NCBI GenBank assembly: GCA_022709865.1
Contig: JAKLIA010000001.1
Span: forward strand, 127,591-191,590
Length of the DNA stretch: 64,000 bases
Direction of reading: 5' to 3'
Source of the DNA: Patescibacteria group bacterium
GTDB lineage: Bacteria > Patescibacteriota > Minisyncoccia > Portnoybacterales > GWB1-42-6
The position numbers were made by a program, and so were the translations under genes. Shown piece after piece: positions 12,650-64,000 of this stretch (positions are counted from its first letter, which is position 1; every line of letters starts with the position of its first letter). The notes beneath the pieces are model-generated. The model did not search any database. It saw nothing but the letters and a program-made list of their open reading frames with translations, and was not told where the DNA came from.

Positions 12650-12685
12650 ACAAGAAACTATTAAGATCCGCAAGAATACAATTTT

Positions 12686-12991: not shown

Positions 12992-13011
12992 ATTGGAGTT
13001 ATTGATCAGAT

Positions 13012-13596: not shown

Positions 13597-13601
13597 TAAA
13601 T

Positions 13602-13787: not shown

Positions 13788-13796
13788 AATAAAATT

Positions 13797-14183: not shown

Positions 14184-14219
14184 AAAATAGGCTGAAAGGA
14201 AAATAAAGACAATAATTTT

Positions 14220-14765: not shown

Positions 14766-14784
14766 TTTTGTTTAAATAAAAAGC

Positions 14785-15147: not shown

Positions 15148-15161
15148 TTTAAATTATAAAT

Positions 15162-15644: not shown

Positions 15645-15660
15645 TCAGTTTTATACTTAT

Positions 15661-16092
15661 ATGCAGTTGCATCAAATTACTAAAAACAAATTTAATAAAG
15701 AGGCTAAACGTGTGGGCCGCGGCGGCAAGCGGGGCACTTTTTCCGGTCGGGGCGTGAAAGGACAAAAATCCCGATCCGGCCGAAAGCTGCGTCCGGAGTG
15801 GCGGGATGCGCTGAAAAGCTTGCCTAAGAAAAGAGGTTATAAGTTTAAGAGCATTCAAAATAAGCCCGTGATCTTGGATCTTCAAACTCTGGGCGCCGCT
15901 TTTAAGAGCGGAGAAATGGTAACAGTTGATATTTTATTGAAGAAAGGCTTGATTCCCAAGTCTAGCGGCCAGTGGCCGAAAGTAAAAATACTAGGCAAGG
16001 GCCCGGTAGCTAAAAAGCTGAACTTTAAAGGCTTCTCTTTTTCAGCTGGCGCCAAGGATGTTATTATTAAAGCGGGCGGAACAATAAAATAA
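15661..16092 (+). CDS. rplO: 50S ribosomal protein L15
   Basis: 143 aa; Gly/Arg-rich N-terminus RVGRGGKRGTFSGRG. Confidence 0.95.
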   Translation: MQLHQITKNKFNKEAKRVGRGGKRGTFSGRGVKGQKSRSGRKLRPEWRDALKSLPKKRGYKFKSIQNKPVILDLQTLGAAFKSGEMVTVDILLKKGLIPKSSGQWPKVKILGKGPVAKKLNFKGFSFSAGAKDVIIKAGGTIK

Positions 16093-16096
16093 ATAG

Positions 16097-30095: not shown

Positions 30096-32882
30096 ATGGC
30101 TCATAAGGGGACCAACAGCCAGGGCGATTTTGGCGTGAAAAAAGGCCAGCATGATTTGGCTGATTTGGCGTTGTCAAAAAACAATAAAAAAGTTAATTTT
30201 TTTGGCCGGATAATTGACCTGAGCAAGATAAAGCCGGGTGTTTTTTTGGCGGACAATAAGCCGGCGGGAAAAAAGAGAGGACGAAAAAAAAGCCTGGACT
30301 TAAAGGAAAAAAATATTATCGAACAGAAAATCGAAGCGTTGCGAAAGCCTATAGAAATTGCCCAGCCTAAATGCGATGACCTGATAGCGATATTGGCAGA
30401 AATTGAAGCCATAGATGAATCTTTGAAAAATCAGATCTGGCGCCTGGAAACCAATAATTTAGATGAGCCGATTTTAATTATTGAGCGAGCCAAACAAGAA
30501 CTATTGGACGCGGAAGATCTGGTGGAGGGCGATTTGGAAGAACTCTTGTGGCTTAAGGAAAAAGAAGCTTCTTTATTGGCCGAGCGCGATGTTTTAGAAA
30601 CTTTGCTGAGCGAATTGGCGGTTGATGATTTTTATGAAGAACAAAGAGCGGAAGTTTTGCCTTTTCGAGCAGAAGAAGAGACAAAATTGGAAAACGATTT
30701 TCCGGAAGAAGCCGTTTTGGTGCCTTCTGCTGAAGAAGAAGGCTTAGAAGCTCTGGATGAAAAAATAACTTTTGAGCAATCAGAGTTTTTATCTCGATGG
30801 CGGCAAAGCGTTAGCCAACCTAAAACCGCTTCGTTAATTCCATTTAGCCGGAAAACTTTAGGAACAAAAAGACCAGAAGAAAGACACGGGTTTTGGAGCT
30901 TTTTTTGGCGCGACCACGTAAAACCGCTTACTCGGCGCAGCGCCGGTTTTTTAACTGCCGGCAGCTTGATATTCTTGGTGATTTTCGGCATGTCTTTGGC
31001 CGGCCAGGGGCTTTTGGCCAAAGAGAATATTTTAAGCTCGGCGTTGCAAGCATATAAATCCATTTTGGCAGCTAAAGATTCGGCTTCCAACCTAAACTTT
31101 TCTGCCGCCAGCGTTAATTTTGAAACAGCATATCAAAACTTTTTATCAGCCGACCAGGAATTGAATAAAATGGGGCGGGGGATAATTTATATTTTAGAAA
31201 AACTGCCCGGCGGTTCGGTGGTGGGTTCGGGCGCTGCGCTGGTTGATGCCGGCGAGAACTTTGCTAAGGCCGGCCAAAGCTTTGCGCAAATTGCCAATAT
31301 TTTCTTGGTGGAAAAGTTTGGCGAATATTTCTCTGACAGCGGCCCGTCGTTTACCCAAAAAATCGTGGAAGCGCAAAACGAGATCGGCCAGGCGCAAAAT
31401 GCCCTGGCGGCGGCTGGCAAAAGTTTAAGCGAAGTGAACGCTAGCGATTTGCCGGCGGACTTAGCGCCGCAAGTAGCCTCGCTTCAAGAAAAAATGGCGC
31501 CGCTACTTGAAGCCGCCGGACAGCTGCAAAATTGGAGCAATATCTTTTTGGAAGTGTTGGGGCATGAACGCGCAAAAAAATATTTATTAGTTTTTCAAAA
31601 TAATTCCGAAGCTCGGCCTACCGGAGGTTTTATTGGCACTTACGGTTTAGTGGACCTGGATGAGGGCCGGCTGAAGAACTTGTTTATTGATGGGATATTT
31701 AATTTGGACGGGCAGCTTTATGAAAAAATTACTCCGCCTAAGCCCATTCAAAAGATCTCCACTGCTTGGTCAACCCATGACGCCAATTGGTTCGCGGACT
31801 TCCCAACTTCGGCTAGGAAAATAATGAGTTTTTATGAAAAAGCCGGCGGGCAAACGGTTGATGGAGTCATCTCTTTAACGCCGACTGTGGTAGAGCGGCT
31901 CCTGGCCTTAACCGGCCCGATCGACTTGCCACAATACGGAGTTTCTTTAAACAAGGATAATTTTTTGGACCTGACCCAATACAAAGTTGAGGTTGATTAC
32001 GATAAAGAATTAAACCAGCCTAAAAAGATCTTGGCGGATTTTGCGCCGCTATTTTTAGATAGACTTTGGCAGGTTTGGCCGCAACAGGGGAAAGAAATTA
32101 TCGGAGTTTTGGCGGATTCTTTAGCGGAAAAACATGTTTTGTTCTATTTTAGCAGCGAATCTTTGGAAAAAACTTTTGTTGAACAAGGCTGGGCCGGAGA
32201 GATCATGGCCACAGAAAAAGATTATTTTAGCGTTATTAATACCAATATTAATGGTTTTAAAACCGACAAAGTGCTAGAGCAGAAGATTTATCACTCCGCT
32301 AATGTCCAGGCAGACGGCTCGGTGATCGATACGGTTCGCATTGTGCGCACGCATAACGGCGGGCAAAGCCAATATGATTGGTATAACAAGGTTAACTCAA
32401 ATTACCTGCGGGTTTATGTGCCGTTGGGTTCAAAATTACTTTCAGCGCAAGGGCAAACTTTGGAAGCTTATAGCGCGCCGATAGATTATCAGGCGCAAGG
32501 ATTCAAGGCCGACCCGGAAGTGGCGGCGCAAGAGCAGGGGACAACAATTGACCAGGGCTCGGGCACGCAGATCTTCCAAGAATCGGGCAAAACGGTTTTT
32601 GGCAATTGGGTTTTTGTCAGCCCGGGCGAGAGCGTGGAGATAACATATAAATATTTATTGCCATTCAAGATAGACTTTAGCCGCGATTCGGAAAGTTATA
32701 GTTTGTTGGCGCAAAAGCAATCTGGCAGCGCGGGCAGCGATTTTGAAAGCGTTTTGCATTTGCCCCAGCAAGCTAAAATTACTTGGCAATATCCGGCTAG
32801 TTTAACTAACGACGGAGGACAGATAAAGTTCAGCGATAATTTGAAAACCGATAAGTTTTACGGATTGGTATTTGGAAAATAA
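30096..32882 (+). CDS. large membrane protein: acidic coiled-coil cytoplasmic N-terminus, one TM, large extracytoplasmic domain (DUF4012-like)
   Basis: 928 aa; E/L/K-rich N-terminal 250 aa; TM FLTAGSLIFLVIFGMSLAG; the extracellular region with the ARPTGGFIGTYG motif resembles the DUF4012 family common in CPR and Actinobacteria (recalled, not searched); its stop overlaps the murJ start (TAATG). Confidence 0.6.
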   Translation: MAHKGTNSQGDFGVKKGQHDLADLALSKNNKKVNFFGRIIDLSKIKPGVFLADNKPAGKKRGRKKSLDLKEKNIIEQKIEALRKPIEIAQPKCDDLIAILAEIEAIDESLKNQIWRLETNNLDEPILIIERAKQELLDAEDLVEGDLEELLWLKEKEASLLAERDVLETLLSELAVDDFYEEQRAEVLPFRAEEETKLENDFPEEAVLVPSAEEEGLEALDEKITFEQSEFLSRWRQSVSQPKTASLIPFSRKTLGTKRPEERHGFWSFFWRDHVKPLTRRSAGFLTAGSLIFLVIFGMSLAGQGLLAKENILSSALQAYKSILAAKDSASNLNFSAASVNFETAYQNFLSADQELNKMGRGIIYILEKLPGGSVVGSGAALVDAGENFAKAGQSFAQIANIFLVEKFGEYFSDSGPSFTQKIVEAQNEIGQAQNALAAAGKSLSEVNASDLPADLAPQVASLQEKMAPLLEAAGQLQNWSNIFLEVLGHERAKKYLLVFQNNSEARPTGGFIGTYGLVDLDEGRLKNLFIDGIFNLDGQLYEKITPPKPIQKISTAWSTHDANWFADFPTSARKIMSFYEKAGGQTVDGVISLTPTVVERLLALTGPIDLPQYGVSLNKDNFLDLTQYKVEVDYDKELNQPKKILADFAPLFLDRLWQVWPQQGKEIIGVLADSLAEKHVLFYFSSESLEKTFVEQGWAGEIMATEKDYFSVINTNINGFKTDKVLEQKIYHSANVQADGSVIDTVRIVRTHNGGQSQYDWYNKVNSNYLRVYVPLGSKLLSAQGQTLEAYSAPIDYQAQGFKADPEVAAQEQGTTIDQGSGTQIFQESGKTVFGNWVFVSPGESVEITYKYLLPFKIDFSRDSESYSLLAQKQSGSAGSDFESVLHLPQQAKITWQYPASLTNDGGQIKFSDNLKTDKFYGLVFGK

Positions 32883-52698: not shown

Positions 52699-53151
52699 AT
52701 GATCGAAGGCGTTATAATAAAAAAACTAAAAAAGAACGAAGATAATCGCGGGTGGCTGGCAGAGATTTGGCGCGACGATGAGATCAATTTTAAATCGCAA
52801 ATGGGCTATGTTAGTTTGACCAAGCCGGGAATTATCCGCGGTCCGCACGAACATCAAAAGCAATCAGATTGTTTTATCTTTTTGGGGCCGGGTAATTTTA
52901 CTCTTCATTTATGGGATAGGCGGCCAGGTAGCGCTACGGAAGGGGAGTATTTTAAAGAATCCTTTGGCGAAGACAATCCTGCTTTAGTGATCGTGCCGCC
53001 GGGCGTGGTGCACGGTTATAAAAATGATTTTGATAAGGATGCTTGGTGCATTAATTTGCCCGATAGGCTATATAAAGGGAAGGATAAGCAAGAAGAGATA
53101 GACGAGATCCGGTGGGAAGAAAAAACTGATTCGCCTTATAAGATCGAATAA
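52699..53151 (+). CDS. rfbC: dTDP-4-dehydrorhamnose 3,5-epimerase-like cupin (RmlC family, short form)
   Basis: 150 aa; NEDNRGW, RGPHEHQ and GVVHGY motifs parallel the RmlC RGxHxQ / GxAHGF pattern. Confidence 0.6.
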   Translation: MIEGVIIKKLKKNEDNRGWLAEIWRDDEINFKSQMGYVSLTKPGIIRGPHEHQKQSDCFIFLGPGNFTLHLWDRRPGSATEGEYFKESFGEDNPALVIVPPGVVHGYKNDFDKDAWCINLPDRLYKGKDKQEEIDEIRWEEKTDSPYKIE

Positions 53152-53220
53152 TTAAAATAAAAAAGGCCCAAACAGATTGGAGCTTTTTTTATTTTTTGGC
53201 GCACGAACAGAGAGGCTCTC

Positions 53221-53249
53221 TTGACATTTTTCGTGTTTATATATATTAT
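53221..53249 (+). promoter_or_regulatory. near-consensus sigma70 promoter (TTGACA, 17 nt spacer, TATTAT)
   Basis: Read directly; preceded by the GAGAGGCTCTC palindrome; drives the gene at 53347, which has a strong SD AGGAGGGG. Confidence 0.6.
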
Positions 53250-53346
53250 ATTAATAAGTTCTTTTTAATAAAAAATTGCTTGAGCGGAGCAGTTTTTTTG
53301 TTTTTTATAATAGCAATGTGCCAAAGGGCAGAAGGAGGGGTGAAAG

Positions 53347-53799
53347 ATGAAGATCCAAGAAGAGCAGGTTAATGTTTATGTCCAGGCGGTTTGCCAGGGC
53401 GTGCCGGAAACATACGAAAGATATTTGGCTTCAAACAGCATAAGCGAAACCAACATTTTAAGATTTGTTAGTTTGGCTTATTGGTTGAGCCAAATAAAGA
53501 AAGAAGAAGACAGAAAAGAAGGTTTTGAGAAGTTCTTGTCAGCCTTGGCAAAAGACATTGAAGATGAAATTGAGCACGACGGGCCGGAGGTAATGAATCT
53601 TTGCGGTTTGGCCGGCGCTATTAAAGAAAACGAGCTTTTGATAATGGAATTATCAAAAGAGATCCCGGAAAGGCTGGAAAAAGGTAAAAAAGCCATCTCG
53701 GAAATCATAGGGCGTTTTCGGCACTATACGCCGGACATGCTTTTTGAAAAGATCGTTGGTTTTCACCCGGCAGCCGTTAATATTTTTCTTAAGCATTAA
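53347..53799 (+). CDS. hypothetical all-helical protein, flanked by its own promoter and terminator
   Basis: 150 aa; no family recognised; strong SD; consensus promoter upstream and a strong terminator downstream. Confidence 0.5.
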   Translation: MKIQEEQVNVYVQAVCQGVPETYERYLASNSISETNILRFVSLAYWLSQIKKEEDRKEGFEKFLSALAKDIEDEIEHDGPEVMNLCGLAGAIKENELLIMELSKEIPERLEKGKKAISEIIGRFRHYTPDMLFEKIVGFHPAAVNIFLKH

Positions 53800-53805
53800 T
53801 ACTTA

Positions 53806-53840
53806 CCCCGAAGAGCCGCTCTCTTCGGGGTTTTTTATTG
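53806..53840 (+). terminator. strong intrinsic terminator (CCCCGAAGAG-CCGCT-CTCTTCGGGG plus TTTTTT)
   Basis: 10-bp GC-rich stem and U-tract read directly. Confidence 0.8.
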
Positions 53841-53844
53841 TTTT

Positions 53845-53873
53845 TTGACTTCGATATTTGTTTAGGTTAATCT
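53845..53873 (+). promoter_or_regulatory. candidate promoter for rfbB (TTGACT, 17 nt spacer, TAATCT)
   Basis: Hexamers read directly, about 40 nt upstream of the ATG. Confidence 0.4.
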
Positions 53874-53909
53874 TTAAGGTAGGGAATCATTTTTATATTT
53901 TTTAATTTT

Positions 53910-54908
53910 ATGAAAATATTAATAACCGGCGGAGCTGGTTTTATGGGCTCTAATTTCATTAAATATATAATGGCCAAACACTCAGATTGGCAAGTGGTTA
54001 ATTTGGATAAATTAACTTATGCCGGGAACCTGGAAAACCTAGCGGAAGTTTCACAAAATAAAAATTACGCTTTTATAAAAGGGGATATAGCCAATAAGGA
54101 AGACGTGGCCAGAGCCATTGGCGAGGGCGTGGATAAAATTATCAATTACGCGGCTGAAACTCATGTGGACCGTTCGATTTTGGAGCCGGACGCTTTCATC
54201 AAAACCGATGTTTTTGGCACCTATACGCTGCTCGAAGCAGCGCGTAAGTATAATGTCGCACAATATATACAGATCTCAACTGACGAAGTCTTTGGCTCGA
54301 TAAAAGAAGGTTCTTTTGATGAACAAAGTCCGTTTGAGCCCAATAGCCCTTATTCGGCTTCCAAAGCCGGCGCTGACCACCTCTGCCGGGCTTATTTTAA
54401 AACTTATAATTTGCCGGTCATCATTACACATTCTTGCAATTTTTATGGGCCAAACCAATATCCGGAAAAATTAATTCCGCTTTTTGTAACTAATTTATTG
54501 GAAGGCAAAAAAGTTCCGGTCTATGGCCAAGGCCAGCAGATGCGGGAATGGATATTTACCCAGGACCACTGCAAAGCAGTGGAAGCAATAATGGAAAAAG
54601 GGCAGTTAGGGGAAGTTTATAATATTGGCACAGGCTATGAAAAAACTAATATGGAAATTACCAAGTTCATTTTGCAGGAGCTGGGCTGTGGCGAAGAGAT
54701 GATAGAATATGTAAAAGATCGGCCGGGACACGACTGGCGTTATGCTATAAACTCAAAAAAGTTGAGGGGATTGGGTTGGCAACCGGAATCTTCTTGGGAA
54801 GAAGGATTGCGTCGCACAATAAATTGGTATAAGGAAAATGAGGCTTGGTGGAAAAAAATAAAATCCGGCGAGTATCTGGAGTATTATAAAAAACAATACG
54901 GGAAATAA
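53910..54908 (+). CDS. rfbB: dTDP-glucose 4,6-dehydratase
   Basis: 332 aa; TGGAGFIGSN-like Rossmann motif (TGGAGFMGSN), YSASK catalytic motif, extended SDR. Confidence 0.88.
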   Translation: MKILITGGAGFMGSNFIKYIMAKHSDWQVVNLDKLTYAGNLENLAEVSQNKNYAFIKGDIANKEDVARAIGEGVDKIINYAAETHVDRSILEPDAFIKTDVFGTYTLLEAARKYNVAQYIQISTDEVFGSIKEGSFDEQSPFEPNSPYSASKAGADHLCRAYFKTYNLPVIITHSCNFYGPNQYPEKLIPLFVTNLLEGKKVPVYGQGQQMREWIFTQDHCKAVEAIMEKGQLGEVYNIGTGYEKTNMEITKFILQELGCGEEMIEYVKDRPGHDWRYAINSKKLRGLGWQPESSWEEGLRRTINWYKENEAWWKKIKSGEYLEYYKKQYGK

Positions 54909-54927
54909 TATTTTAAAAAATAAAAGC

Positions 54928-54952
54928 ATCTCGCCTCTTGCGAGGTGTTTTT
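54928..54952 (+). terminator. intrinsic terminator (ATCTCGC-CTCTT-GCGAGGT plus GTTTTT)
   Basis: Hairpin and U-tract read directly after the rfbB stop. Confidence 0.6.
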
Positions 54953-54969
54953 AAGTAAAAAGACAGGTT

Positions 54970-54998
54970 TTGACATTTTTATTTTTTGAAGTTAAGTT
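54970..54998 (+). promoter_or_regulatory. candidate promoter for rfbD (TTGACATTTTT, 17 nt, TAAGTT); the transcript may be near-leaderless
   Basis: The -35 box TTGACATTTTT is identical to the one at 53221; the -10 sits about 6 nt before the ATG. Confidence 0.4.
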
Positions 54999-55004
54999 TT
55001 AGGT

Positions 55005-55892
55005 ATGCAAAAAGTCTTAATTATCGGCGCTAAGGGAATGTTGGGCCAGGAATTGGTTAAGGTTTTTTCTGTGCCTTCCGCCCAAGATGAAAAAAAATAC
55101 GAAGTGGTGGCGTGGGACAAGGAAGAGATAAATATTACTGATGAAGCGCAGGTAAAAAATAAAATTAGAGAGCTGGCGCCGCAGATCATTATTAATGCGG
55201 CTGCTTATAACTCAGCCGATAAATGCGAGGAGCCGGAGTATTTTGAGGTAGCCAAAAAAATAAACGGCTTGGCTCCGGGATATTTAGCCCAGGTGGCTAA
55301 GAGTCTGGGCGCGATTTTTACGCATTATAGCACTGATTATATTTTTGACGGTAAAAATAAAGATGGATATAACGAAAGCGCATTTCCTTCCCCTATTTCC
55401 AAATACGGCGAGTCAAAATTATTAGGCGAAAAACAAGTGGCGGCTGTTGGTGGCCAATATTATATTATTCGTTTACAGCGGCTTTTTGGTTCGCCAGCCA
55501 AGTCAATTGAGGCTAAAAAAAGTTTTTTTGATGTGATGCTTAAGCTGTCGCAAGAAAAAAAAGAATTAGGGGCTGTTGATGAAGAGCTGGCTAATTTTAC
55601 TTACGCGCCGGACTTAGCTCTACAGACTAAATATTTAATAGAAAAAAAATTGCCAACTGGAATATATCATATAACCAATGAGGGTTCGCCGGCTACTTGG
55701 TTTGGCGCGGCCGAAGCTTTGTTCAAAGTGGCGGGTGTTGGCGGCGTAAAATTGATTCCGTTGGCTTCAAGCCTTTTTCCCCGGCCAGCCAAACGGCCAA
55801 AATACTCCGTTTTGTTGAACACCAAATTGCCGCCTTTGCGGCCTTGGAACGAAGCGTTGAAAGAGTTTTTGTCGGAAAATAAGCGGTCTTGA
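55005..55892 (+). CDS. rfbD: dTDP-4-dehydrorhamnose reductase
   Basis: 295 aa; N-terminal IIGAKGMLGQEL Rossmann motif, YSTDYIFDG and YGESK motifs of RmlD. Confidence 0.75.
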   Translation: MQKVLIIGAKGMLGQELVKVFSVPSAQDEKKYEVVAWDKEEINITDEAQVKNKIRELAPQIIINAAAYNSADKCEEPEYFEVAKKINGLAPGYLAQVAKSLGAIFTHYSTDYIFDGKNKDGYNESAFPSPISKYGESKLLGEKQVAAVGGQYYIIRLQRLFGSPAKSIEAKKSFFDVMLKLSQEKKELGAVDEELANFTYAPDLALQTKYLIEKKLPTGIYHITNEGSPATWFGAAEALFKVAGVGGVKLIPLASSLFPRPAKRPKYSVLLNTKLPPLRPWNEALKEFLSENKRS

Positions 55893-55958
55893 TTGACTAA
55901 TTTTTAAATAGGGCTTATTTTTAATTTAATGTTTTTTAACAATAAAAGGGGGGTAAAA

Positions 55959-56192
55959 ATGGAATTAATATCAATAACCGCTCAAGCAACCCAGATTGTT
56001 AGGCAGTCGAGAGTAGATATTATTGTTGCTTACGGCAGCAATAATGAGACCACTCGGACGCTTTCGGTTTCGCCTATGGTTGGGAGGCTAGCAGAAAATC
56101 CAGGGAATAAAATTATTGTAGAAAAGGCGTTTATCGAGTCCTTGCCAAGCGAGATTGACGGCAAGGGGAAACTCATTGACATTTGGATCTAG
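55959..56192 (+). CDS. small hypothetical protein (77 aa from MELISI...; the ORF track starts at 55929)
   Basis: SD AAAGGGGGG lies 6 nt upstream of the ATG at 55959; followed by a terminator; no family recognised. Confidence 0.4.
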   Translation: MELISITAQATQIVRQSRVDIIVAYGSNNETTRTLSVSPMVGRLAENPGNKIIVEKAFIESLPSEIDGKGKLIDIWI

Positions 56193-56197
56193 GCAAT

Positions 56198-56230
56198 GGA
56201 CCTCGTTTAAAAAAACGAGGTCTTTTTTTT
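56198..56230 (+). terminator. intrinsic terminator (GGACCTCGTTT-AAAAAAA-CGAGGTC plus TTTTTTTT)
   Basis: Read directly. Confidence 0.75.
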
Positions 56231-56232
56231 AT

Positions 56233-56258
56233 CCCTACACCTAGGCATAGGTGTAGGG
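56233..56258. repeat. 26-bp perfect palindrome CCCTACACCTAGGCATAGGTGTAGGG (second copy of the element at 111-136), abutting a TTGACC -35 box
   Basis: Arms CCCTACACCTA and TAGGTGTAGGG are reverse complements; relative to copy 1 the arm differences are compensatory; TTGACC at 56264-56269 is 18 nt from TATCAT. Confidence 0.6.
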
Positions 56259-56318
56259 ATTTGTTGACCGAAAGGTGCTAGTAGGTTTATCATTATAAGC
56301 AATAGAATAAATTGTTTT

Positions 56319-56909
56319 ATGAATAAGAGCCTTGATTTTTCACGGAGGGCTCTGAATTTAAGTTTGGCTATTTATCGGATAACAACCAAGTTCCCAAATG
56401 GCGAAGCGCTATCTGGGCAAATGCGGAAAATAGGCAATGAGGTAGCGGGCGATTTAGCAGCCAATAATTTTTCTGGCATCGAAAAAAAGATTGATCGCTT
56501 AAAAATATATTTTGCCATTGCCAAAGCGCAAAACTGGGTTAAGCCGATAAATTGGTCAATTCTGGAAAAAGAATATTGCAAATTAAAAATGGAGGTTGAT
56601 TTTGAGTTGAGAGCGGGCGAGACAGAAGAAAGCGAAGAAGCTATAATAGTGTCGCACAATATTAAGGAGGTAAAAAAACGGAATCGCCTGAAATCTGCTA
56701 TTCCGGCCCAAGAAAGGTTAAATTACCGCCAATCAAAGATCCTGACTGCCTTGGATAAGAAAAGCGGCTTAAAGATGTCCGAATTGGTTCCCCTTTTTAA
56801 TGACGAGATATCAGAACGCACTTTGCGCAATGAACTTCAAGACATGGTTCGGGGTGGTTTGATAAAAAAGAACGGGACAAAAAAATACACAGAATATTTG
56901 AAAGGGTAA
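56319..56909 (+). CDS. putative transcriptional regulator: N-terminal four-helix-bundle domain plus C-terminal winged-helix DNA-binding domain
   Basis: 196 aa; N-terminal RRALNLSLAIYRITTKFPNGEALSGQMRKIGNEVAGDLA resembles the four-helix-bundle proteins found in rRNA intervening sequences; the C-terminal SKILTALDKKSGLKMSELVPLFNDEISERTLRNELQDMVRGGLIKK looks wHTH-like. Confidence 0.45.
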   Translation: MNKSLDFSRRALNLSLAIYRITTKFPNGEALSGQMRKIGNEVAGDLAANNFSGIEKKIDRLKIYFAIAKAQNWVKPINWSILEKEYCKLKMEVDFELRAGETEESEEAIIVSHNIKEVKKRNRLKSAIPAQERLNYRQSKILTALDKKSGLKMSELVPLFNDEISERTLRNELQDMVRGGLIKKNGTKKYTEYLKG

Positions 56910-56910
56910 T

Positions 56911-56970
56911 TTCTATCGGCAATCTATCGGCAACTTGTTGCCGATAGATTGCCGATAGATTGCCGATAGA
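56911..56970. repeat. hairpin built from tandem 11-bp repeats: CTATCGGCAAT x2, a GTTG spacer, then ATTGCCGATAG x3
   Basis: Read directly; about 24 bp of perfect inverted symmetry with a repeat-copy imbalance of 2 versus 3; fills the whole intergenic gap before rfbA. Confidence 0.7.
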
Positions 56971-56973
56971 AAT

Positions 56974-57777
56974 ATGGTAAAAAAAGGCATAATTTTGGCC
57001 GGCGGAACAGCCACTCGCTTGTTTCCGCTAACTGCCACCACTTCCAAGCAGCTTCTCCCGGTTTATGACCGGCAGATGATTTTTTATCCGTTGAACACCC
57101 TCATCAAAGCGGGTATCCGCGATATTTTAGTGATCGTTTCTCCTGAGCATAGCGGTCAATTTTTGAACCTGCTAGGTTCGATCTTTAAAAGCTATGGCGT
57201 GCACCTTTATTTTGAGGTGCAAAAAGTGCCGCGGGGCCTGGCGGAAGCCTTTATTTTAGGCGAAAACTTTATTGATAATAATAGCGTGGCTTTAATATTG
57301 GGCGATAATATTTTTGAAGATGATTTTGCCAAAGCGGTTAAAAGCTTTAAGTCTGGTGGCCAGATATTTGCCAAGAAAGTGGCCGACCCGGAAAGATTAG
57401 GCGTGGTGAAGTTCGATAGCCAAAAAAGAGCAGTTCAAATAGTGGAAAAACCTAAAGAATGGATCAGTGATTATGCGGTGCCTGGCTTTTATATTTATGA
57501 TAAAAATGTGGTAGCCATTGCCAAGAAAATTAAGCCATCGGATAGAGGAGAAATAGAGATAACGGCGGTGAATAATGAGTATCTAAAAAACGGCAAATTA
57601 AAAGTTGGTTTGATAAAAGGCGAATGGCTGGATGCCGGAACTTTTGATTCTTTGCTGGAAGCCGGCTATATCGTTAAAACAAAGAAATTGTATAAAAACT
57701 TCCATCCTTTGGTTGATAAGGCGATTGCGGATTTTAACGAAGAATTGAAGGGGATTTGCAAGAAAAAATTATTTTAA
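56974..57777 (+). CDS. rfbA: glucose-1-phosphate thymidylyltransferase
   Basis: 267 aa; GIILAGGTATRLFPLT...KQLLPVYD N-terminal nucleotidyltransferase motif. Confidence 0.8.
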   Translation: MVKKGIILAGGTATRLFPLTATTSKQLLPVYDRQMIFYPLNTLIKAGIRDILVIVSPEHSGQFLNLLGSIFKSYGVHLYFEVQKVPRGLAEAFILGENFIDNNSVALILGDNIFEDDFAKAVKSFKSGGQIFAKKVADPERLGVVKFDSQKRAVQIVEKPKEWISDYAVPGFYIYDKNVVAIAKKIKPSDRGEIEITAVNNEYLKNGKLKVGLIKGEWLDAGTFDSLLEAGYIVKTKKLYKNFHPLVDKAIADFNEELKGICKKKLF

Positions 57778-57805
57778 AAAATCTTTATTTTATTAAGCTA
57801 AAAAC

Positions 57806-58672
57806 ATGACTAAACAAATCAAAAAAGCGATCGTGGCGGTAGCGGGTTCGGGCACGCGCCTTTTGCCAGCTACCAAGGCTATGCCTAAAGAGATGCTGCC
57901 TATCGTGGATAAGCCAATTATCCAGCTAATTGTTGAAGAATTGGTTGCGGCCGGGATAGAAGATATTATCTTGGTGACCAAGTGGGATAAAAAGCCGCTG
58001 GAAGACCATTTTGACCACAATTGGGCCTTGGGAAACGACCTTAAAAATGCCGGCAAGGAAGAGCTTTGGAACCAGATAAAGAATATCTCTGAAATGGCTA
58101 ATTTTATTTATGTCCGCCAGAAGGGCCCTTATGGCAATGGCACACCGGTTTTATGCGCGGCCAATCTAGTTGATGATGAACCATTCATGTTCGTTTGGGG
58201 TGATGATCTGGTTAAATCAAAAGTGCCTTTTGCCAAGCAAATGGTTGACGATTTTGCCAAGCATGGTTTGCCGATGATCGGGGTCCAGGAAGTATCCAAA
58301 GAAGATGTTTCAAAATACGGCATTGTGAAGCTTAAAGAAGGCTCTATGGAGATAGAAGATATTATAGAAAAGCCGGCAGCGGAAAAAGCGCCGTCTTGCT
58401 TTGCGGATTTTGGCCGGATGATACTGAACCAGGAAATAGTGGAAATATTAAAAGAAACCGCTTTAGGCAAGGGCAATGAATTGTGGATGGTGGATGCTAT
58501 CCGAACTTATGTGAAGAAGGGCAATAAGTTTTTGGCTAAAAAAGTTGAAGGCGGGGAATGGCTGACAACAGGCGACCCGATAAATTATTTGAAGGCTATT
58601 TTAAAATACGCTGCCGATAGGGAGGATATTAAAAAAGAGTTGGCTGAGTTCATAAAAAAGAACTTCTGCTAA
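57806..58672 (+). CDS. galU: UTP--glucose-1-phosphate uridylyltransferase
   Basis: 288 aa; [30 protein letters not shown] signature. Confidence 0.8.
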   Translation: [288 protein letters not shown]

Positions 58673-58681: not shown

Positions 58682-59191
58682 GTGGCTAAAATTACCGAAC
58701 AACAATTTTTGGAGTTTTACGATAAAAATGTCGGCAAGATCTACCGCTACATCTATTTTCGGGTTGGCGCCCAAGAACTGGCCCAAGACTTAACCAGCGA
58801 AGTTTTTCTTAAGTCTTGGCAAAGGCTGAACCAAGAAGGCGCCAAAATAGTGGATAATCCCCGCGCTTTTTTTTACCAAGTAGCGCGCAATTTAATCGTC
58901 GATTTCTATCGGCAAAAAGATAAGGCGCCTTTGTCATTGGAAGAAATTGCCGATAGAACTATTGCCGATAGAAATGACGGCCCCAGCGAGACTGCTTCAG
59001 TGGCTTTAGATATGCAATCGGTAAAAAAGGCTTTAATGCACTTGAACGAAGACTACCGCGAAATTATAATTTGGCGGTATCTAGACGAATTAGAAATCAA
59101 GGAAATCGCCGAAATCTTGAATAAGAGAGAGGGGGCGGTCAGAACCCTTCTTTCTCGCGCTTTAGCTGATTTAAAGGGGATTTTAAAGTAG
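58682..59191 (+). CDS. RNA polymerase sigma factor, ECF (sigma-70 regions 2 and 4), GTG start
   Basis: 169 aa; region 2 (IYRYIYFRV...DLTSEVFLKSW) and region 4 HTH (IIIWRYLDELEIKEIAEILNKREGAVRTLLSRA). Confidence 0.8.
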   Translation: MAKITEQQFLEFYDKNVGKIYRYIYFRVGAQELAQDLTSEVFLKSWQRLNQEGAKIVDNPRAFFYQVARNLIVDFYRQKDKAPLSLEEIADRTIADRNDGPSETASVALDMQSVKKALMHLNEDYREIIIWRYLDELEIKEIAEILNKREGAVRTLLSRALADLKGILK

Positions 59192-59249: not shown

Positions 59250-60314
59250 ATGGAAGATAAAGAACTCATAACTAAGATCCAAGTGCTTAAAGAAATTAAA
59301 CCCAGTGAGGACTGGGTTTTGTCTTGCCGTGGCAAGCTGGCTTTTCGCTTAGAAATGGGGCGGAAACAGGACCTTCTGAAAAAAGATACCTCAACTTTAA
59401 AGGAACTTTTCGCCTTTTTGGGCAATACCAACCGGCAGCCGTCTTTTAACTTAGCTTATAGCCTTTTTATTGCTGCTCTAGTGGTTCTGGGCGGCGGTGG
59501 GGCAACTGTTTGGGCAGCAGCGCAAAGTTTGCCTGGCAGCCCGTTGTATCCTGTAAAATTGGTGATGGAAAAAGCCCGGGTGCAAATGTCTCTATCGGCA
59601 GAAAGCCGGCTTCAACTGCAAACACAGATTGCCGATACCAGATTGCAGGAATTGGAGTTTGTGGTTAATGGGCAGGATTCCGATGCTTTGAAGGTGGAAA
59701 AGATATTCCAGGTGGCCGAAGGCATGCAAGACCAATTGACTATTGCCAATGATGAGCTTCCTAAGGTTGGCGATAAGGCTGAGCCGCAGAAATCATTAGC
59801 GGTGGCTAAAATGGTCAGCGATAAGGCTAGCCAAGCCAGCAAAGCCATAATAGCGGCTAAAGAGAGCTTATCAAGTGATATGAAGTCGGATTTGACCGCT
59901 AAGCTGTCCGATGCGGTTAAAGCAGCGGAAAAAACAGGGCTGGCAGCTTTGGAAGCGATGATAATGAGCCAAGATATTTCTAGTACCACTAAGGCTGAAA
60001 TAGCGGTTAAGCTGCAAGAGGAAATCAAAAATACCGAAGAGCAGGTTTTAGTTAAAGAGCAGAAAATTGCCCAAGCCAACTCTTTTGCCGATAAATTGCC
60101 GATAAGGGCGGTTTTGATCAATCAATTCGAACAAATACACGATTTGCTAGATAAGGCTGCAGAAAGCTTGAATAAGGGAGATTTTAGCGGAACCCTGGAA
60201 ATGCTTAAAGCGGCTAAGGCGATAGATGATGGAACAGATAAAGTGACGGAAAACGCGGTTATGCCGGAAGTTAAGGGGGCGGCCAGCTCTACTGTGGATA
60301 ATCTGGGGAAATAA
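59250..60314 (+). CDS. putative anti-sigma factor / DUF5667-like single-pass membrane protein
   Basis: 354 aa; short cytoplasmic N-terminus, TM (FNLAYSLFIAALVVLGGGGATVWAAA), long helical extracytoplasmic domain; sits immediately downstream of the ECF sigma; the role is inferred from context. Confidence 0.45.
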   Translation: MEDKELITKIQVLKEIKPSEDWVLSCRGKLAFRLEMGRKQDLLKKDTSTLKELFAFLGNTNRQPSFNLAYSLFIAALVVLGGGGATVWAAAQSLPGSPLYPVKLVMEKARVQMSLSAESRLQLQTQIADTRLQELEFVVNGQDSDALKVEKIFQVAEGMQDQLTIANDELPKVGDKAEPQKSLAVAKMVSDKASQASKAIIAAKESLSSDMKSDLTAKLSDAVKAAEKTGLAALEAMIMSQDISSTTKAEIAVKLQEEIKNTEEQVLVKEQKIAQANSFADKLPIRAVLINQFEQIHDLLDKAAESLNKGDFSGTLEMLKAAKAIDDGTDKVTENAVMPEVKGAASSTVDNLGK

Positions 60315-60353: not shown

Positions 60354-60382
60354 TTGACTATCGGATAGTTATTTTATATACT
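60354..60382 (+). promoter_or_regulatory. near-consensus sigma70 promoter (TTGACT, 17 nt spacer, TATACT) about 460 nt upstream of the giant surface-protein gene
   Basis: Read directly; the -35 overlaps the palindrome CTATCGGATAG; there is no other gene between it and 60844. Confidence 0.6.
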
Positions 60383-60843
60383 TATTTTATAGAAAAAAAC
60401 CCATTTTCTGCCTTAATTAAGGGCTTTGTCCTTATCTGGGCACGGAAAGGAACTGAAGGTCGTCAAGGCATTTGAGGTTGAAATCCCTCATGTGTTTTGA
60501 GTTGTCGTTTCCGAATGGATTTTTGAAACAAAAAAATAATAAAAAAATAAAAAATCAATTCAGGGATTATTTTTACTTGGCCCCCATTGCGCATCTGTTT
60601 CTTATTGGAACACAGCGGAATGAAAAAAAGGGGGGTGGCAGATTAAACCTCGAGGACACCTCGCTAATATCTTTCGTTATTCGATAAGATAGAAAGCGTA
60701 AATCTCGTTTTAACGAGACCAGGGGGTAAAATTCTGCGGCGCAAGCCCAACAGGATTCTCGCAGGAAGAAATGAGCTTATGAATTGATATTAATTCTGAC
60801 AATTAAAGAAATTTAATTGCAGGATAAAAACAACAAATTAACA

Positions 60844-63800
60844 ATGAGTAAAACATTTAAAAAAGTCGTTTCCGTTACTACCAGCGTGACCACAATTTTG
60901 TGGTTGTCTGGCGTTGCGGCTTTGGCTCCTATGGCTGCTTTTGCTGCCACCATCAATGAAGGTGACACCATCAAGACTGCCACAAGCCCGGATGTTTATA
61001 TTGCTAAATATGTTGGCGCGAAGAAATTCAAGAGACTTATCTTGAACCCTTCCGTCTTCAATAGCTATAAGCATTTGAGCTGGAGCGCTATCAAAACCGT
61101 GACTCAAGCGGAAATGGACGCTTTTACAACTTCTGATTTAGTGAGAGCTTTGGGTGATGCACCGGTTTATAAATTGGTTCCGAACGGTGATGAAGGTACA
61201 AAACAATGGGTCAACATGACTGCCGAGGCGTTTACCGCCGCCGGTTATGATTGGGATTCCATTTATGTAATCAACAACACTGATCGCGACAACTATACGA
61301 CTGGCGCTGCTATCACTGGCGGCACTTCTGTTTCTCCTTCAACCACTGTTACCCCGGGTGTGGCCGGAACCTTAACGGTTTCTTTGGCTTCTGACACTCC
61401 GGCGGCTGGCATTGCGCCTTTGAAGGCGGCCCGAGTTCCGTTTACTAAGTTTGCTTTGACAGCTGGCGCGACTGATGTCACTATCACCGCGATCACTGCT
61501 CAGCGAACCGGTTTAGCGGCTGACACTGCTTTGTCTTCCGTTGCCTTAATTGACAACGCGACAAACTTGCAGGTTGGTTTGAACCAGACCTTGAACTCTG
61601 TTCACCAAGTCACGATTCGCGAAACTATCACCATTCCGGCTAATACCACCAAGTATTATACTTTGGCGGCTAACATGCCTTCATCCTCAGCCAGTGCTTC
61701 TGGCCAGGTTGCTTCTTTGGCTTTGACGGCTATTGAAACTACTTCAACAGTTTCCGGCTCTTTGCCGATAACTGGTAATGGCCAGACAATCAATGAAACT
61801 TTGGCTATCGGCACTTATTCCGGTGCGGCCGGTTCATTGAACGTATCAACTTCTACTAAAGAAGTTGGCGTAACCAATTTCAGTTTCTCTGGCGTCAAAT
61901 TGACTGCCGGCTCAGCTGAAGACGTGACTGTTTATTCCATCAGGTTTAACCAGTCCGGTTCAGCGGCTGCTTCCGATTTGTCCAATGTCATAGTGACTGA
62001 TGGAACAACTAACTATGCCACGACCATCTCTTCCGATGGTAAATACTACACCGCTTCTTTTGGTGCCGCTGGCTTATTGATCGCCAAGGGGCTAAACAAA
62101 GAGTTTACGGTGAAAGGTAATATCGTTAGCGGTTCAGCTCGGACTATCAAGTTCGATATTTATCGCTCAACCGATATCGTGGTAAAGGGTAATGTCTATG
62201 GTTATTATTTGACCATTGATGCCAATACCTCAAATCCGTTCAATACCACCACTAACCCAGTTTTTATGGGTAGCACAATTACTGTGAGTGCTGGCACTTT
62301 GCGGGTTGACAAGAGCGCGACTGGTGCTCCGGCTGCCAATATTACTATTGGCGCGACCAATCAAATTTTGGGCGCTTTTGATTTCGTAGCTGCTGGTGAA
62401 TCTGTTAACGTGGCGAGCATGGTTTTTACCATCACCACTACGACTGTCACCAATAACGGCAAATTGACCAACATTACTTTGTCTAAAGCTGACGGAACAA
62501 TCTTGGCTGGTCCGGTTGACCCGACCTATTCTTCAAGCGGTGTCAATTTGGCGACCTTTACCGGTACTGTTACTTTCCCGGTTGGCACAACCCAGGTTAT
62601 CGTTAAAGGTAATTTGGATAACAACTGGACTGCTAACGACACGATTATCGTGAGTTTGAGCACTCCGGCGACTAAAGTCACCAGTATTACTGGCGTTACA
62701 ACCGGCAATACTATCACTGCCACCCCATCCTCAGCGGTTTCGGCTAACACCATGACCGTGAAGGCTGGCTCTTTGGTTGTGTCAGTTTCTGGTACTCCGG
62801 TTGCCCAGACCGTTATTATGGGTGTAACTGGCTATACTTTTGCCAATTATATCTTTGACGCTTCTGCTTCCGGCGAAGATGTTAAAGTCACTACGATTGA
62901 TTTGCAAGATATCAACGTGACTTCAGCGGAAAGCGAACTTTCCTCAATGCAATTATGGGATGGTTCAACCGCTTTGAACACCGGCAGCAATGTGCCAAAC
63001 TTGACCGATGCGGCTGGCACTAATACCCAGACCTTTACTCTGGACAGCGGTTTGATAATTCCGAAAGGAACTTCAAAGACCATTGCCTTGAAGGGTAATA
63101 TTTCTGGTTCTGCCACCGCCGGCGGCAAGTTCCAGTGGGGCTTGGCAAGCGGCGCGGCTGTGACTGCGACCGGTATGTCAACCACTCTTAACGTTGCCGA
63201 GACCGTTAATGCTGCTGATGGCTCAATAATGACTATCGCGGCGTCCGGTCAATATAGCGTGGCTTTGGATTCTTCAACTCCGACCGGTAAATTGATTGCC
63301 GCGAACACCACGGGCAATACTATGACCGTGTTGAAGTTCTACGCTACCTCTGAACAGATCAACGTCACCAAGGTTCGCTTGTCCTTGAACAATGCCAGCT
63401 CTTCTGGCAATGATTTGAGCCAAGTTTACATCTATGATGGCTCGACTCTGTTGGGCCAGGGTGTCTTGGGTATCGGTAACGCGACTGGTAAGACTAACAA
63501 TGCCAGCTCAACCTTTACTTTGACCACCCCGTTGCAGATTCCGGCCAATACCGACAAGATCGTTACGATCAAAGCCGATATTGCCCCGATCTACACTGCC
63601 AATACCGTTGCGACTGCTGGCCATATGATCGCTATTGATTTCTATGGTTCAACCAGCTCCAGCGAAAACGTTGGTAATGGTGCGTCATCCGGCGTTGAAG
63701 TTCTAAACTACAGCGTAACTACTGCCCAGACTCCGGCTTATATCTTTAAGTCTGTGCCGACAGTGGCTGCTGTGGCTTTGCCTACTTCTTCCTTGACCAA

Positions 63801-64000
63801 TGGCACTAAAGTCATTAGCAAGTTCAGCGTCACGGCTGATGCCAAGGGCGATATTGATCTTTACAAGTTTACCTTTAAGATCTCTACCGACTCTCCGACC
63901 ACCGGCGGTCCGTTGGCTATGCAGAACTTGACTTTAGTTGACGTAACTAGTAGCGCTGAAGCGACTTTATATGCTTCAACTACCCCGCATTACGCCGACT
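60844..64000 (+). CDS. giant secreted repetitive cell-surface protein (S-layer/adhesin-like), 5' partial; it runs off the window end
   Basis: Open frame of more than 1050 codons from the ATG at 60844 with no stop to 64000 (frame checked at several points); Sec signal peptide MSKTFKKVVSVTTSVTTILWLSGVAALAPMAAFA; at least 6 tandem Thr/Ser/Ala/Val-rich beta-type domains of about 130 aa; absent from the ORF track because no stop codon lies in the window. Confidence 0.8.
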   Translation, partial: MSKTFKKVVSVTTSVTTILWLSGVAALAPMAAFAATINEGDTIKTATSPDVYIAKYVGAKKFKRLILNPSVFNSYKHLSWSAIKTVTQAEMDAFTTSDLVRALGDAPVYKLVPNGDEGTKQWVNMTAEAFTAAGYDWDSIYVINNTDRDNYTTGAAITGGTSVSPSTTVTPGVAGTLTVSLASDTPAAGIAPLKAARVPFTKFALTAGATDVTITAITAQRTGLAADTALSSVALIDNATNLQVGLNQTLNSVHQVTIRETITIPANTTKYYTLAANMPSSSASASGQVASLALTAIETTSTVSGSLPITGNGQTINETLAIGTYSGAAGSLNVSTSTKEVGVTNFSFSGVKLTAGSAEDVTVYSIRFNQSGSAAASDLSNVIVTDGTTNYATTISSDGKYYTASFGAAGLLIAKGLNKEFTVKGNIVSGSARTIKFDIYRSTDIVVKGNVYGYYLTIDANTSNPFNTTTNPVFMGSTITVSAGTLRVDKSATGAPAANITIGATNQILGAFDFVAAGESVNVASMVFTITTTTVTNNGKLTNITLSKADGTILAGPVDPTYSSSGVNLATFTGTVTFPVGTTQVIVKGNLDNNWTANDTIIVSLSTPATKVTSITGVTTGNTITATPSSAVSANTMTVKAGSLVVSVSGTPVAQTVIMGVTGYTFANYIFDASASGEDVKVTTIDLQDINVTSAESELSSMQLWDGSTALNTGSNVPNLTDAAGTNTQTFTLDSGLIIPKGTSKTIALKGNISGSATAGGKFQWGLASGAAVTATGMSTTLNVAETVNAADGSIMTIAASGQYSVALDSSTPTGKLIAANTTGNTMTVLKFYATSEQINVTKVRLSLNNASSSGNDLSQVYIYDGSTLLGQGVLGIGNATGKTNNASSTFTLTTPLQIPANTDKIVTIKADIAPIYTANTVATAGHMIAIDFYGSTSSSENVGNGASSGVEVLNYSVTTAQTPAYIFKSVPTVAAVALPTSSLTNGTKVISKFSVTADAKGDIDLYKFTFKISTDSPTTGGPLAMQNLTLVDVTSSAEATLYASTTPHYAD

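Follow-up and report, generated by a model that had tools for sequence, protein, structure and literature searches.

A gene at the end of the 64,000-nucleotide stretch of DNA analysed here (the window) probably encodes the main S-layer-type coat protein of the Candidatus Portnoybacteria cell. On our best reading the product is a wall-anchored, probably glycosylated S-layer protein, for which we infer assembly into a lattice. The initial annotation had proposed an S-layer protein or adhesin without choosing between them; the evidence presented below favours the former, while a role as adhesin appears unlikely. The coding sequence runs without a stop for 1,052 codons on the + strand (60844-64000) and is 100% identical along its whole length to GenBank HRY52403.1 (Ca. 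Portnoybacteria), which excludes a frameshift; thus neither an in-frame stop nor a frameshift, the two ways in which the initial annotation saw that it might fail, is present, and the peptides it quoted are found in the translation. As it had supposed, the gene was missing from the list of open reading frames because the frame continues past the window end. Retrieved from the contig, as had been advised, the full gene occupies window coordinates 60844-64368, with its stop 368 nt (122 codons) beyond the window, so that the protein comprises 1,174 aa and the term 'giant' was an overstatement.

Several properties of the protein are those of S-layer proteins, which are secreted via a signal peptide, have a mass of 40-200 kDa and an acidic pI, and contain few or no Cys residues. 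The Sec signal peptide that had been described earlier (residues 1-34; 60844-60945, +) consists of MSKTFKK, a hydrophobic core and the sequence AFA, after which cleavage before a further alanine is predicted; these residues are disordered in the structure model (pLDDT <50), and equivalent N-termini were present in 66/66 homologs inspected. The precursor would accordingly be exported via Sec with removal of the 34-residue peptide, leaving a mature protein of 116.7 kDa with a pI of 4.8 (family median 4.7), 26.5% Ser+Thr, 29 N-x-S/T sequons and 0 Cys. The 1,174-aa protein is, as previously remarked, rich in Thr (15.8%), Ala (12.1%) and Ser (10.5%) and devoid of Cys.

The signal peptide is followed by a 125-aa N-module (residues ~35-160; 60946-61323, +) made up of two tandem ~57-aa subdomains of beta-beta-beta-alpha-beta-alpha topology, which are PlyCB-like and, by hhalign on the family alignment, unrelated to the remainder of the protein. 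The nearest systems to this module are PlyCB and related endolysin wall-binding domains (PDB 4f87, 6ist and 7d55) and the EccB1 repeat (3x3m), and its resemblance to the endolysin/PlyCB domains is weak. The module alignment matched nothing in Pfam or NCBIfam, and neither it nor the full protein contains, by these two databases, an SLH, CWB2/CW_binding_2 or related S-layer anchor. It is present in 42/68 family members, the remainder having a PG_binding_1-type N-terminus, and it also occurs fused to SH3_3. This distribution marks it as an autonomous, exchangeable module and, putatively, as a wall anchor that stands in for the PG_binding_1 of other members. We propose that its two subdomains tether the protein to the cell wall, the ligand probably being a rhamnose-containing wall glycan produced by the flanking rml, glycosyltransferase and Wzy_C genes; in most other family members a coiled coil and PG_binding_1 would instead bind peptidoglycan directly.

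The body of the protein consists of six domains, D1-D6 (residues 171-320, 321-478, 479-640, 641-792, 793-962 and 963-1174), which hhalign on the family alignment identifies as mutually homologous (probability 84-99.5%, best E 4e-23). D1-D5, with a cohesin-like beta-sandwich fold, occupy 61354-63729 (+), and D6 (84-95% to D1-D5 by hhalign) begins at 63730 and is cut by the window end at 64000 (+). The six repeated domains of the initial annotation were therefore borne out in number and kinship but not in size, which is ~150-210 rather than ~130 aa. Comparison of the protein with itself by BLASTP revealed no internal repeat at E<=1, and TRF found no DNA tandem repeat inside the gene; on profile-profile comparison, which alone reveals their homology, the repeated domains are real but ancient. 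Conservation declines from D1 (51%) to D6 (35%), and indels are concentrated in D6, within which the C-terminal motif DFIWSD...W.NGY..GLP is conserved and W1134 is invariant. D6 is the most variable domain and probably faces outwards. The six cohesin-like beta-sandwich domains may make up a stiff unit that, by packing against adjacent copies, would build a surface lattice; in it, the conserved D1-D2 end would be wall-proximal and the variable D5-D6 end directed towards the environment or host.

The structure model of the monomer is confidently all-beta (pLDDT 86.6) and, with a pTM of 0.49, silent on self-assembly. Searched whole against the PDB with Foldseek, it retrieved generic multi-Ig arrays alone, at very low TM-scores, and PDB sequence searches gave no homolog. 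The likeness of the individual domains to cohesin modules of cellulosome scaffoldins and to Calx-beta is one of fold only (8-15% identity); the protein matches neither the Pfam cohesin (PF00963) nor the Calx-beta profile and, in contrast to scaffoldins, has no evident dockerin partners. Matches to MG domains raise the idea of a secreted enzyme, the 'extracellular enzyme' of Kuroda et al., or of an alpha-2-macroglobulin-like protease trap, which we regard as very improbable: each of these matches spans just one accessory beta-sandwich domain, with 8-12% identity, and Pfam and NCBIfam recognise no domain of any kind, and hence no catalytic one, in the full protein, in keeping with the earlier remark that catalytic motifs are absent. 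For alpha-2-macroglobulin the resemblance is limited to the MG-like fold, and we rejected this relationship since a protein lacking Cys cannot possess the CxEQ thioester.

Further fold matches are to domains of fibrillar adhesins (CLIPPER, Bap, Esp, pilins and the PrgB Ig domains), and these bear on the possibility that the protein is a host-attachment adhesin, in which a wall-anchored beta-sandwich stalk of ~1,000 residues would present variable C-terminal domains to the host without forming a continuous lattice. CPR bacteria are episymbionts, a lifestyle to which such a function is suited, as the variable C-terminal end would be to host-specific binding. Fibrillar adhesins, however, typically carry variable counts of near-identical repeats, and here there is neither a BLASTP self-match nor a DNA tandem repeat; the six diverged domains are of ancient origin, each with its own orthologs, and their number does not vary over thousands of clusters. 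Moreover, no adhesive tip domain was recognisable by Pfam, and there is no LPXTG/sortase signal. A sortase-anchored pilin or adhesin was rejected on the latter ground, the C-terminus reading ...SNLTAQVISQ. Adhesin and coat roles are mutually compatible.

The breadth of the family provides a further argument for a coat protein. Homologs fall into 2,937 clusters at 50% identity, with fixed length and colinear architecture, and occur in at least 368 species genomes; judged by these counts, the family spans thousands of ultra-small CPR/Patescibacteria lineages. Among the lineages sampled it is near-universal, and most genome assemblies have a single locus. This occurrence, combined with the signals of extreme expression described below, suits a structural coat better than an adhesin, and the constancy of length and colinearity over very divergent lineages suggests geometric constraints of the kind that a lattice unit would impose. 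The same constancy weighs against an abundant coat or sheath of non-crystalline type, in which a wall-associated matrix or layer of glycoprotein would shield or stiffen the envelope but lack order in two dimensions. Such a layer would equally be secreted, wall-anchored, abundant and accompanied by glycan genes, and the lattice contacts of our protein are putative; we nevertheless consider this alternative rather improbable, also in view of the C6+C3/C2 assemblies predicted for similarly sized proteins of Patescibacteria.

Those predictions belong to a body of work on what is apparently the same protein class. Johnston et al. (bioRxiv 10.1101/2024.05.28.596244, a non-peer-reviewed preprint) predicted p6 lattices for Patescibacteria proteins of 1,131-1,274 aa, including Kaiserbacteria A0A0G1WWP5 (1,173 aa) and Parcubacteria GMX59286.1 (1,185 aa). 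Cryo-EM has, in addition, shown S-layers on Parcubacteria cells. In three Paceibacteria, structurally similar PGBD proteins rank within the top five signal-peptide genes by expression, and the analogous gene of Ca. Yanofskyibacterium shows top expression (Kuroda et al., 2024; PMC10936435); these authors read the PGBD proteins as host-attachment factors rather than S-layer proteins, which lends the adhesin explanation its published support. The proteins of both studies share with ours the phylum, the length class (1,131-1,274 aa), a signal peptide, a multi-domain body of Ig-like or beta-sandwich domains and very high expression (predicted in our case), and their N-terminal peptidoglycan-binding domain has a counterpart in the PG_binding_1-type members of our family. 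The window protein differs in having an undescribed two-subdomain module in place of the PGBD and in its rhamnose/Wzy_C cluster setting. Our likening rests on taxon, length class and PGBD architecture; a search seeded with a Kaiserbacteria member, together with two look-ups of clusters and one of a contig, did not bring up the published accessions. The conserved winged-helix and membrane TPR partners and the leader described below are absent from both papers.

The neighbourhood of the gene suggests how the coat might be decorated. Upstream, on the + strand, lie dTDP-rhamnose-type sugar-nucleotide genes (52699-58672) that are conserved in the close clade and were assigned by Pfam as RmlC-like (dTDP_sugar_isom; 52699-53151), RmlB-like (Epimerase/GDP_Man_Dehyd; 53910-54908), RmlD-like (RmlD_sub_bind; 55005-55892) and two RmlA-like genes (NTP_transferase; 56974-57777 and 57806-58672). 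Downstream of the surface-protein gene are two Wzy_C proteins, one of them with TPR, and a GT4. Nucleotide-sugar, glycosyltransferase and Wzy_C-family genes thus adjoin the structural gene, as in an slg-type cluster. The S-layer protein SgsE of Geobacillus stearothermophilus has an adjacent slg cluster with rmlACBD and the Wzy_C-type oligosaccharyltransferase WsaB. One of the two oligosaccharyltransferase-like Wzy_C proteins encoded downstream of our gene probably attaches O-glycans to the Ser/Thr-rich body (26%).

The parallel with Gram-positive S-layer glycoproteins of the SgsE type extends further. Both have an N-terminal wall-polymer-binding module (putative in our protein) followed by a string of beta-sandwich domains, which in the Gram-positive proteins are crystallisation domains; both are acidic and Cys-free, have a strong promoter with a long 5' UTR, and are encoded next to genes for dTDP-rhamnose, glycosyltransferases and membrane proteins of the Wzy_C family. 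A bead-on-string architecture is also described for the S-layer proteins SbsC and Sap. Unlike the Gram-positive proteins, the window protein has no SLH, CWB2 or other anchor known to Pfam and shows no detectable sequence similarity to them; its domains are cohesin-like and ~150 aa in size, it belongs to an ultra-small CPR bacterium and its glycosylation is putative. The association with glycan genes is, furthermore, limited to one clade, so that shared ancestry of the gene order, and not a tie in function, may explain it.

Two partner genes are found across the family. A 196-aa protein with a C-terminal winged helix-turn-helix (wHTH; 56319-56909, +) gives weak HTH_DeoR matches, its Yanofskyibacterium equivalent being annotated as HTH DeoR-type, and 67/73 loci have a homolog upstream in the same orientation; it is a candidate transcriptional regulator of the surface-protein gene. 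The family-wide downstream partner is a membrane TPR protein. The former presumably acts in regulation and the latter in assembly or chaperoning.

Like the rhamnose/Wzy_C glycan genes, a second pair of upstream genes is clade-specific. The initial annotation had placed a sigma/anti-sigma pair here, and its first half is confirmed by Pfam and NCBIfam: the protein encoded at 58682-59191 (+) is an ECF-type sigma-70 factor with regions 2 and 4 only (Sigma70_r2 and r4 [r4_2]) that scores 93.6 bits against TIGR02937 (sigma70-ECF), over the cut-off of that model. The second half is a single-pass DUF5667 membrane protein (59250-60314, +; Pfam E 2.4e-7) with a ~65-aa cytoplasmic N-terminus, a TM segment at ~67-90 and a helical ectodomain, in which Pfam and NCBIfam recognise no known anti-sigma domain, whether of the zf-HC2/RskA type or another. 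It remains a putative anti-sigma factor, the DUF5667 gene being paired with the sigma gene in 10/10 loci and likewise in Ca. Yanofskyibacterium, where the same wHTH-sigma-DUF5667-surface-protein gene order is found. A full-text literature search for DUF5667 returned no papers.

Signals of very high expression surround the surface-protein gene. A near-consensus sigma-70-type promoter (TTGACT-N17-TATACT; 60354-60382, +) is present upstream, and promoters with at least 10/12 matches were found in 31/66 homologous loci, at a median of 431 nt before the ATG, as against 0/66 intragenic controls. Transcription of the gene by the ECF sigma factor is unsupported since this promoter is of the housekeeping type, and no ECF-type motif was identified. 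The non-coding gap upstream of the gene has a median length of 630 bp (68 loci). In the window it contains a structured 5' leader of ~455 nt (60385-60843, +), with an MFE of -135 kcal/mol (z = -5.7 vs shuffles) and blocks conserved among relatives, in which Rfam detected nothing at gathering or permissive thresholds. One of these blocks is a nested-hairpin RNA motif (60439-60524, +) with an invariant unpaired AAGGUCG and a UUGAAAU loop. RNAalifold assigned 22 pairs to it, 10 with compensatory double changes; 88.5% of the pairs form, vs 42-65% with slid partners, and its score was reached by 0/500 shuffles. The derived covariance model gave one match per locus, solely upstream of the surface-protein gene and solely in the close clade, outside of which the motif was undetected by the model; two further matches were marginal (E~0.03). 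A second conserved block, GGGGGGUGGCAGAU, showed no covariation. In the PGBD clade, visual inspection suggested a hairpin at the 5' end, which the consensus fold failed to confirm; a shifted register of the alignment is the probable cause. Following the gene is a strong terminator with a ~30-bp stem. The CAI of 0.736 equals the level of EF-Tu and lies 1.9 SD above that of other genes; the rise in codon bias is a modest one. Promoter, structured leader, terminator and EF-Tu-like codon adaptation together point to very high expression, which would be monocistronic, with the leader probably stabilising the mRNA.

A large part of bacterial diversity belongs to the CPR/Patescibacteria, nearly all of them uncultured and host-attached. 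Their envelope is the interface for this mode of life, and yet its main protein is still labelled 'hypothetical' or 'peptidoglycan-binding protein'. What we describe is one fixed six-domain family in thousands of lineages with all the genomic hallmarks of a surface-coat protein, to which the present locus adds a probable system for glycosylation, partner genes that are conserved and a putative wall anchor open to exchange. The locus offers testable targets, namely lattice prediction and cryo-ET fitting, the anchor-ligand pair, and the candidate regulator with its leader RNA, and the protein itself could serve as a marker antigen for labelling or enriching CPR cells. As a tentative extension, which we hold to be possible rather than probable, Paceibacteria-type CPR may share a dedicated and hitherto undescribed surface-layer 'cassette' of wHTH regulator, ~450-nt structured leader RNA with a regulatory or stabilising role, fixed six-domain lattice protein and membrane TPR assembly factor, joined in some lineages by the ECF sigma/DUF5667 pair for envelope sensing; in the Portnoybacteria clade, a new PlyCB-like module docking on a locally encoded rhamnose glycan would have taken the place of the peptidoglycan-binding anchor. 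If this is true, one tractable protein system would underlie the envelope in a large fraction of CPR diversity.

The surface protein encoded from window position 60844 onward is best read as a wall-anchored coat protein of the S-layer type, an interpretation that we regard as probable. As the initial annotation had claimed, the plus-strand frame at 60844-64000 is open, with 1,052 codons translated without interruption, and along its full length it shows 100% identity to P0001, a 1,174-aa protein deposited as GenBank HRY52403.1 ('hypothetical protein P5089_00950', Candidatus Portnoybacteria). The gene was missing from the ORF track solely because its frame runs past the window end; reading the full gene from the same contig (L001, offset +50,843) places the stop codon 368 nt beyond that end, and the protein is thus large rather than 'giant'. 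The predicted Sec signal peptide is present (MSKTFKK, a hydrophobic core and AFA/A), and the composition is as described, with 15.8% Thr, 12.1% Ala, 10.5% Ser and no Cys. The mature protein would have a mass of 116.7 kDa, a pI of 4.8 and a Ser+Thr content of 26.5%.

Self-comparison of the protein by BLASTP revealed no internal repeats, and Tandem Repeats Finder detected no DNA repeats in the gene. The presence of at least six repeated domains was borne out by splitting A1, an alignment of 68 family members, into segments and comparing these profile against profile (hhalign): six cohesin-like segments are mutually homologous (probability 84-99.5%; best E 4e-23, D4-D5), namely D1 (residues 171-320), D2 (321-478), D3 (479-640), D4 (641-792), D5 (793-962) and D6 (963-1174), while the N-terminal ~135 residues are unrelated to them. 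The AlphaFold2 model built from A1 is confident (mean pLDDT 86.6) and almost wholly beta-stranded; disorder is confined to three stretches, the signal peptide (1-34), a linker (160-173) and a short loop (1066-1069). Foldseek against the PDB matched this model to Ig-like domain arrays of a generic kind, those of PrgB, alpha-2-macroglobulin/complement, integrin legs and the archaeal S-layer proteins 7ptp and 8c8r. Sequence searches of Pfam, NCBIfam and the PDB gave no match to any part of the protein. Despite the structural resemblance, an enzyme or an alpha-2-macroglobulin-like protein is highly improbable, being contradicted by the lack of a catalytic domain (Pfam, NCBIfam) and of cysteine, both of which had been noted initially.

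A word-indexed search returned 598 relatives, nearly all full-length ones measuring 1,130-1,250 aa, and a species-level genome scan located relatives in at least 368 genomes of Portnoy-, Kaiser-, Yanofsky-, Zambryski-, Giovannoni-, Harrison- and Komeilibacteria and unnamed Paceibacterota. With clustering at 50% identity, an exhaustive profile search yielded 8,664 clusters, of which 2,937 reach E<=1e-30; the majority of the clusters are colinear from profile position ~1 to ~1,175 and 1,100-1,290 aa long. Mean pairwise identity falls steadily from 51% in D1 to 35% in D6, and indels are mostly C-terminal. That the domains are fixed in number and each orthologous across the family, and that variation gathers at the distal rather than the presumed wall-proximal end, speaks, at the level of sequence, for the geometry of a lattice or coat. 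A non-crystalline coat protein is a reading that we consider quite improbable. A host adhesin that forms no lattice is somewhat easier to envisage, if still unlikely; it would be compatible with the S-layer reading, and host attachment has been proposed for proteins bearing a peptidoglycan-binding domain (PGBD) (Kuroda et al., 2024, PMC10936435), but adhesin stalks with variable repeat number look unlike the fixed D1-D6 pattern. Separately, in some genomes the main gene and the TPR gene are separated by a second, shorter surface-protein-like ORF, and in one Komeilibacteria MAG two contigs each carry a full-length copy (loci for these observations: L059 10555-12108, L025 9180-10007, L004 and L006); paralogues or alternative coat proteins may be involved.

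The N-terminal module (~35-160), when modelled alone, is predicted with confidence (pLDDT 89.4, pTM 0.79) as a tandem pair of subdomains, each of ~57 residues in the order beta-beta-beta-alpha-beta-alpha, which weakly resemble PlyCB, a protein reportedly specific for polyrhamnose. Profile searches indicate that the module is autonomous, occurring in small signal-peptide proteins and fused to bacterial SH3 (PF08239). It is present in 42 of the 68 aligned members; the remainder share the D1-D6 body and carry another N-terminus, often a coiled coil with PG_binding_1 (PF01471). A constant body joined to swappable N-terminal heads, here putatively wall-binding, is the modular design known from classical bacterial S-layer proteins.

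Substantial ORFs in the window lie almost all on the plus strand with very short spacers, so that the 529-bp gap 5' of the gene stands out as exceptional for a compact genome. It contains a near-consensus sigma-70-type promoter, TTGACT-N17-TATACT (60354-60382), whose position implies a leader of ~455 nt (60385-60843). This leader folds well beyond shuffled controls (z = -5.7) and matched no Rfam family. At 60439-60524 it carries a nested hairpin with an unpaired AAGGUCG and a UUGAAAU loop, both invariant; across six relatives, 10 of 22 pairs show compensatory double changes, and pairs are formed in 88.5% of cases vs 42-65% with slid partners (0/500 shuffles match the score). With a covariance model, each locus yields a single copy of the hairpin, in this same position and nowhere but upstream of the surface-protein gene, within the close Portnoybacteria-like clade only. 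Some 200 nt 5' of the start codon (~60640-60665), an unvarying G-rich block, AAGGGGGGUGGCAGAU, precedes CCUCGAGGACACCUCGC; it shows no covariation and might act as a Shine-Dalgarno-like stabiliser or be bound by a protein. No obvious Shine-Dalgarno sequence lies near the true start codon. Long upstream regions occur throughout the family (median 630 bp, 68 loci), and promoters matching at least 10 of 12 positions were found in 31/66 loci, at a median of 431 nt from the ATG, vs 0/66 intragenic controls. The PGBD clade has its own conserved leader blocks and promoter, TTTGAAA-N16-TATATAAT, common to L003, L013, L017, L022, L031, L036, L051 and L072. Just past the -10 box, at the predicted transcript 5' end, each PGBD-clade sequence shows by eye an inverted repeat (for example UGUAUAUGA...UCAUAUACA vs AUGCAAGG...CCUUGCAU), possibly an operator or a hairpin that stabilises the 5' terminus.

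At its 3' end the gene has a U-tailed terminator with a ~30-bp stem (z = -6.6). With the EF and ribosomal-protein genes of the window as reference, it has a codon adaptation index of 0.736, equal to that of EF-Tu and +1.9 SD vs other genes. The window's EF-G/EF-Tu/ribosomal-protein cluster lies at ~2300-17400, and four tRNA genes are also present. Together, promoter, leader, terminator and codon usage describe a gene predicted to be monocistronic and very highly expressed, whose leader would stabilise or regulate the transcript; S-layer genes typically show this pattern.

A 196-aa winged helix-turn-helix (wHTH) protein (56319-56909; C-terminal winged HTH, weakly four-helix-bundle-like N-terminus) has homologs upstream on the same strand in 67/73 loci and is a candidate regulator, uncharacterised and CPR-wide. 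Beyond the window end (335 nt), and 3' of the very strong terminator (L001 13563-13647), lies the gene for a membrane-anchored 230-aa TM-TPR protein (L001 13703-14395); among 83 loci across the family, 75 of the 79 that are informative have this gene directly after that for the surface protein. These counts define a family-wide core of wHTH gene, long non-coding region, surface-protein gene and TM-TPR gene. In the Portnoybacteria-like clade, two rmlA genes, sigma factor and DUF5667 are inserted between the wHTH gene and the non-coding region. Here, RmlC-, RmlB-, RmlD- and two RmlA-like genes lie upstream, as does the ECF sigma factor already proposed (58682-59191), accompanied by a DUF5667 single-pass membrane protein (59250-60314); among 83 related loci this pair occurs in only 10, every one of the N-module type. 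Downstream, likewise beyond the window, are a GT4 glycosyltransferase gene and, conserved only in close relatives, adjacent genes for two large Wzy_C membrane proteins (L001 14415-18535), one of 626 aa and one of 743 aa that ends in TPRs, candidate protein O-glycosyltransferases or wall-glycan ligases of the O-antigen-ligase/oligosaccharyltransferase-like type. Elsewhere, a large, uncharacterised 928-aa protein with a DUF4012 domain (30096-32882; E 4e-30) is possibly envelope-related, and in one related metagenomic locus (L084 1045-4548) the FtsK encoded close to the surface protein contains an intein (Pfam Intein_splicing) with a LAGLIDADG endonuclease (LAGLIDADG_3).

S-layers have been imaged on Parcubacteria cells. 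In three Paceibacteria, PGBD proteins of similar predicted structure are among the five most expressed signal-peptide genes (Kuroda et al., 2024, PMC10936435), and a preprint, not peer-reviewed as of 2025, lists as S-layer proteins, with predicted C6+C3/C2 assemblies, a set from Patescibacteria measuring 1,131-1,274 aa, one of which is a Kuroda protein (Johnston et al., bioRxiv 10.1101/2024.05.28.596244). Our family resembles these in taxon, size class and PGBD architecture. What appears to be the same protein class has already been flagged computationally, and the core S-layer idea is not new. In Ca. Yanofskyibacterium the expression table gives the order HTH DeoR-type (00353), ECF sigma (00352), DUF5667 (00351) and 00350, a 692-aa signal-peptide PGBD protein expressed at 16.7 vs 7.6-12.5 normalised units for its neighbours (PMC10936435); the sigma/DUF5667 association is therefore recurrent and not accidental. 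New here are this recurrence, the conserved wHTH and TM-TPR partners, the structured leader motif, the six-fold internal homology with its conservation gradient, and the putative non-PGBD anchor module with its tie to the glycan cluster.

Of the candidates for a dedicated regulator, the wHTH protein is the most plausible; the TM-TPR protein could plausibly aid assembly or act as a chaperone. Envelope state may be linked to expression by the ECF sigma/DUF5667 pair, although the gene's own promoter is of the housekeeping type. The surface protein would be exported by Sec, held on the wall by its N-terminal module and assembled by way of its six beta-sandwich domains, D5-D6 forming the variable end that faces out. 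It is probably O-glycosylated by the adjacent Wzy_C/GT machinery with dTDP-rhamnose-derived sugars; alternatively, or in addition, this machinery may make the wall glycan to which the PlyCB-like module binds.
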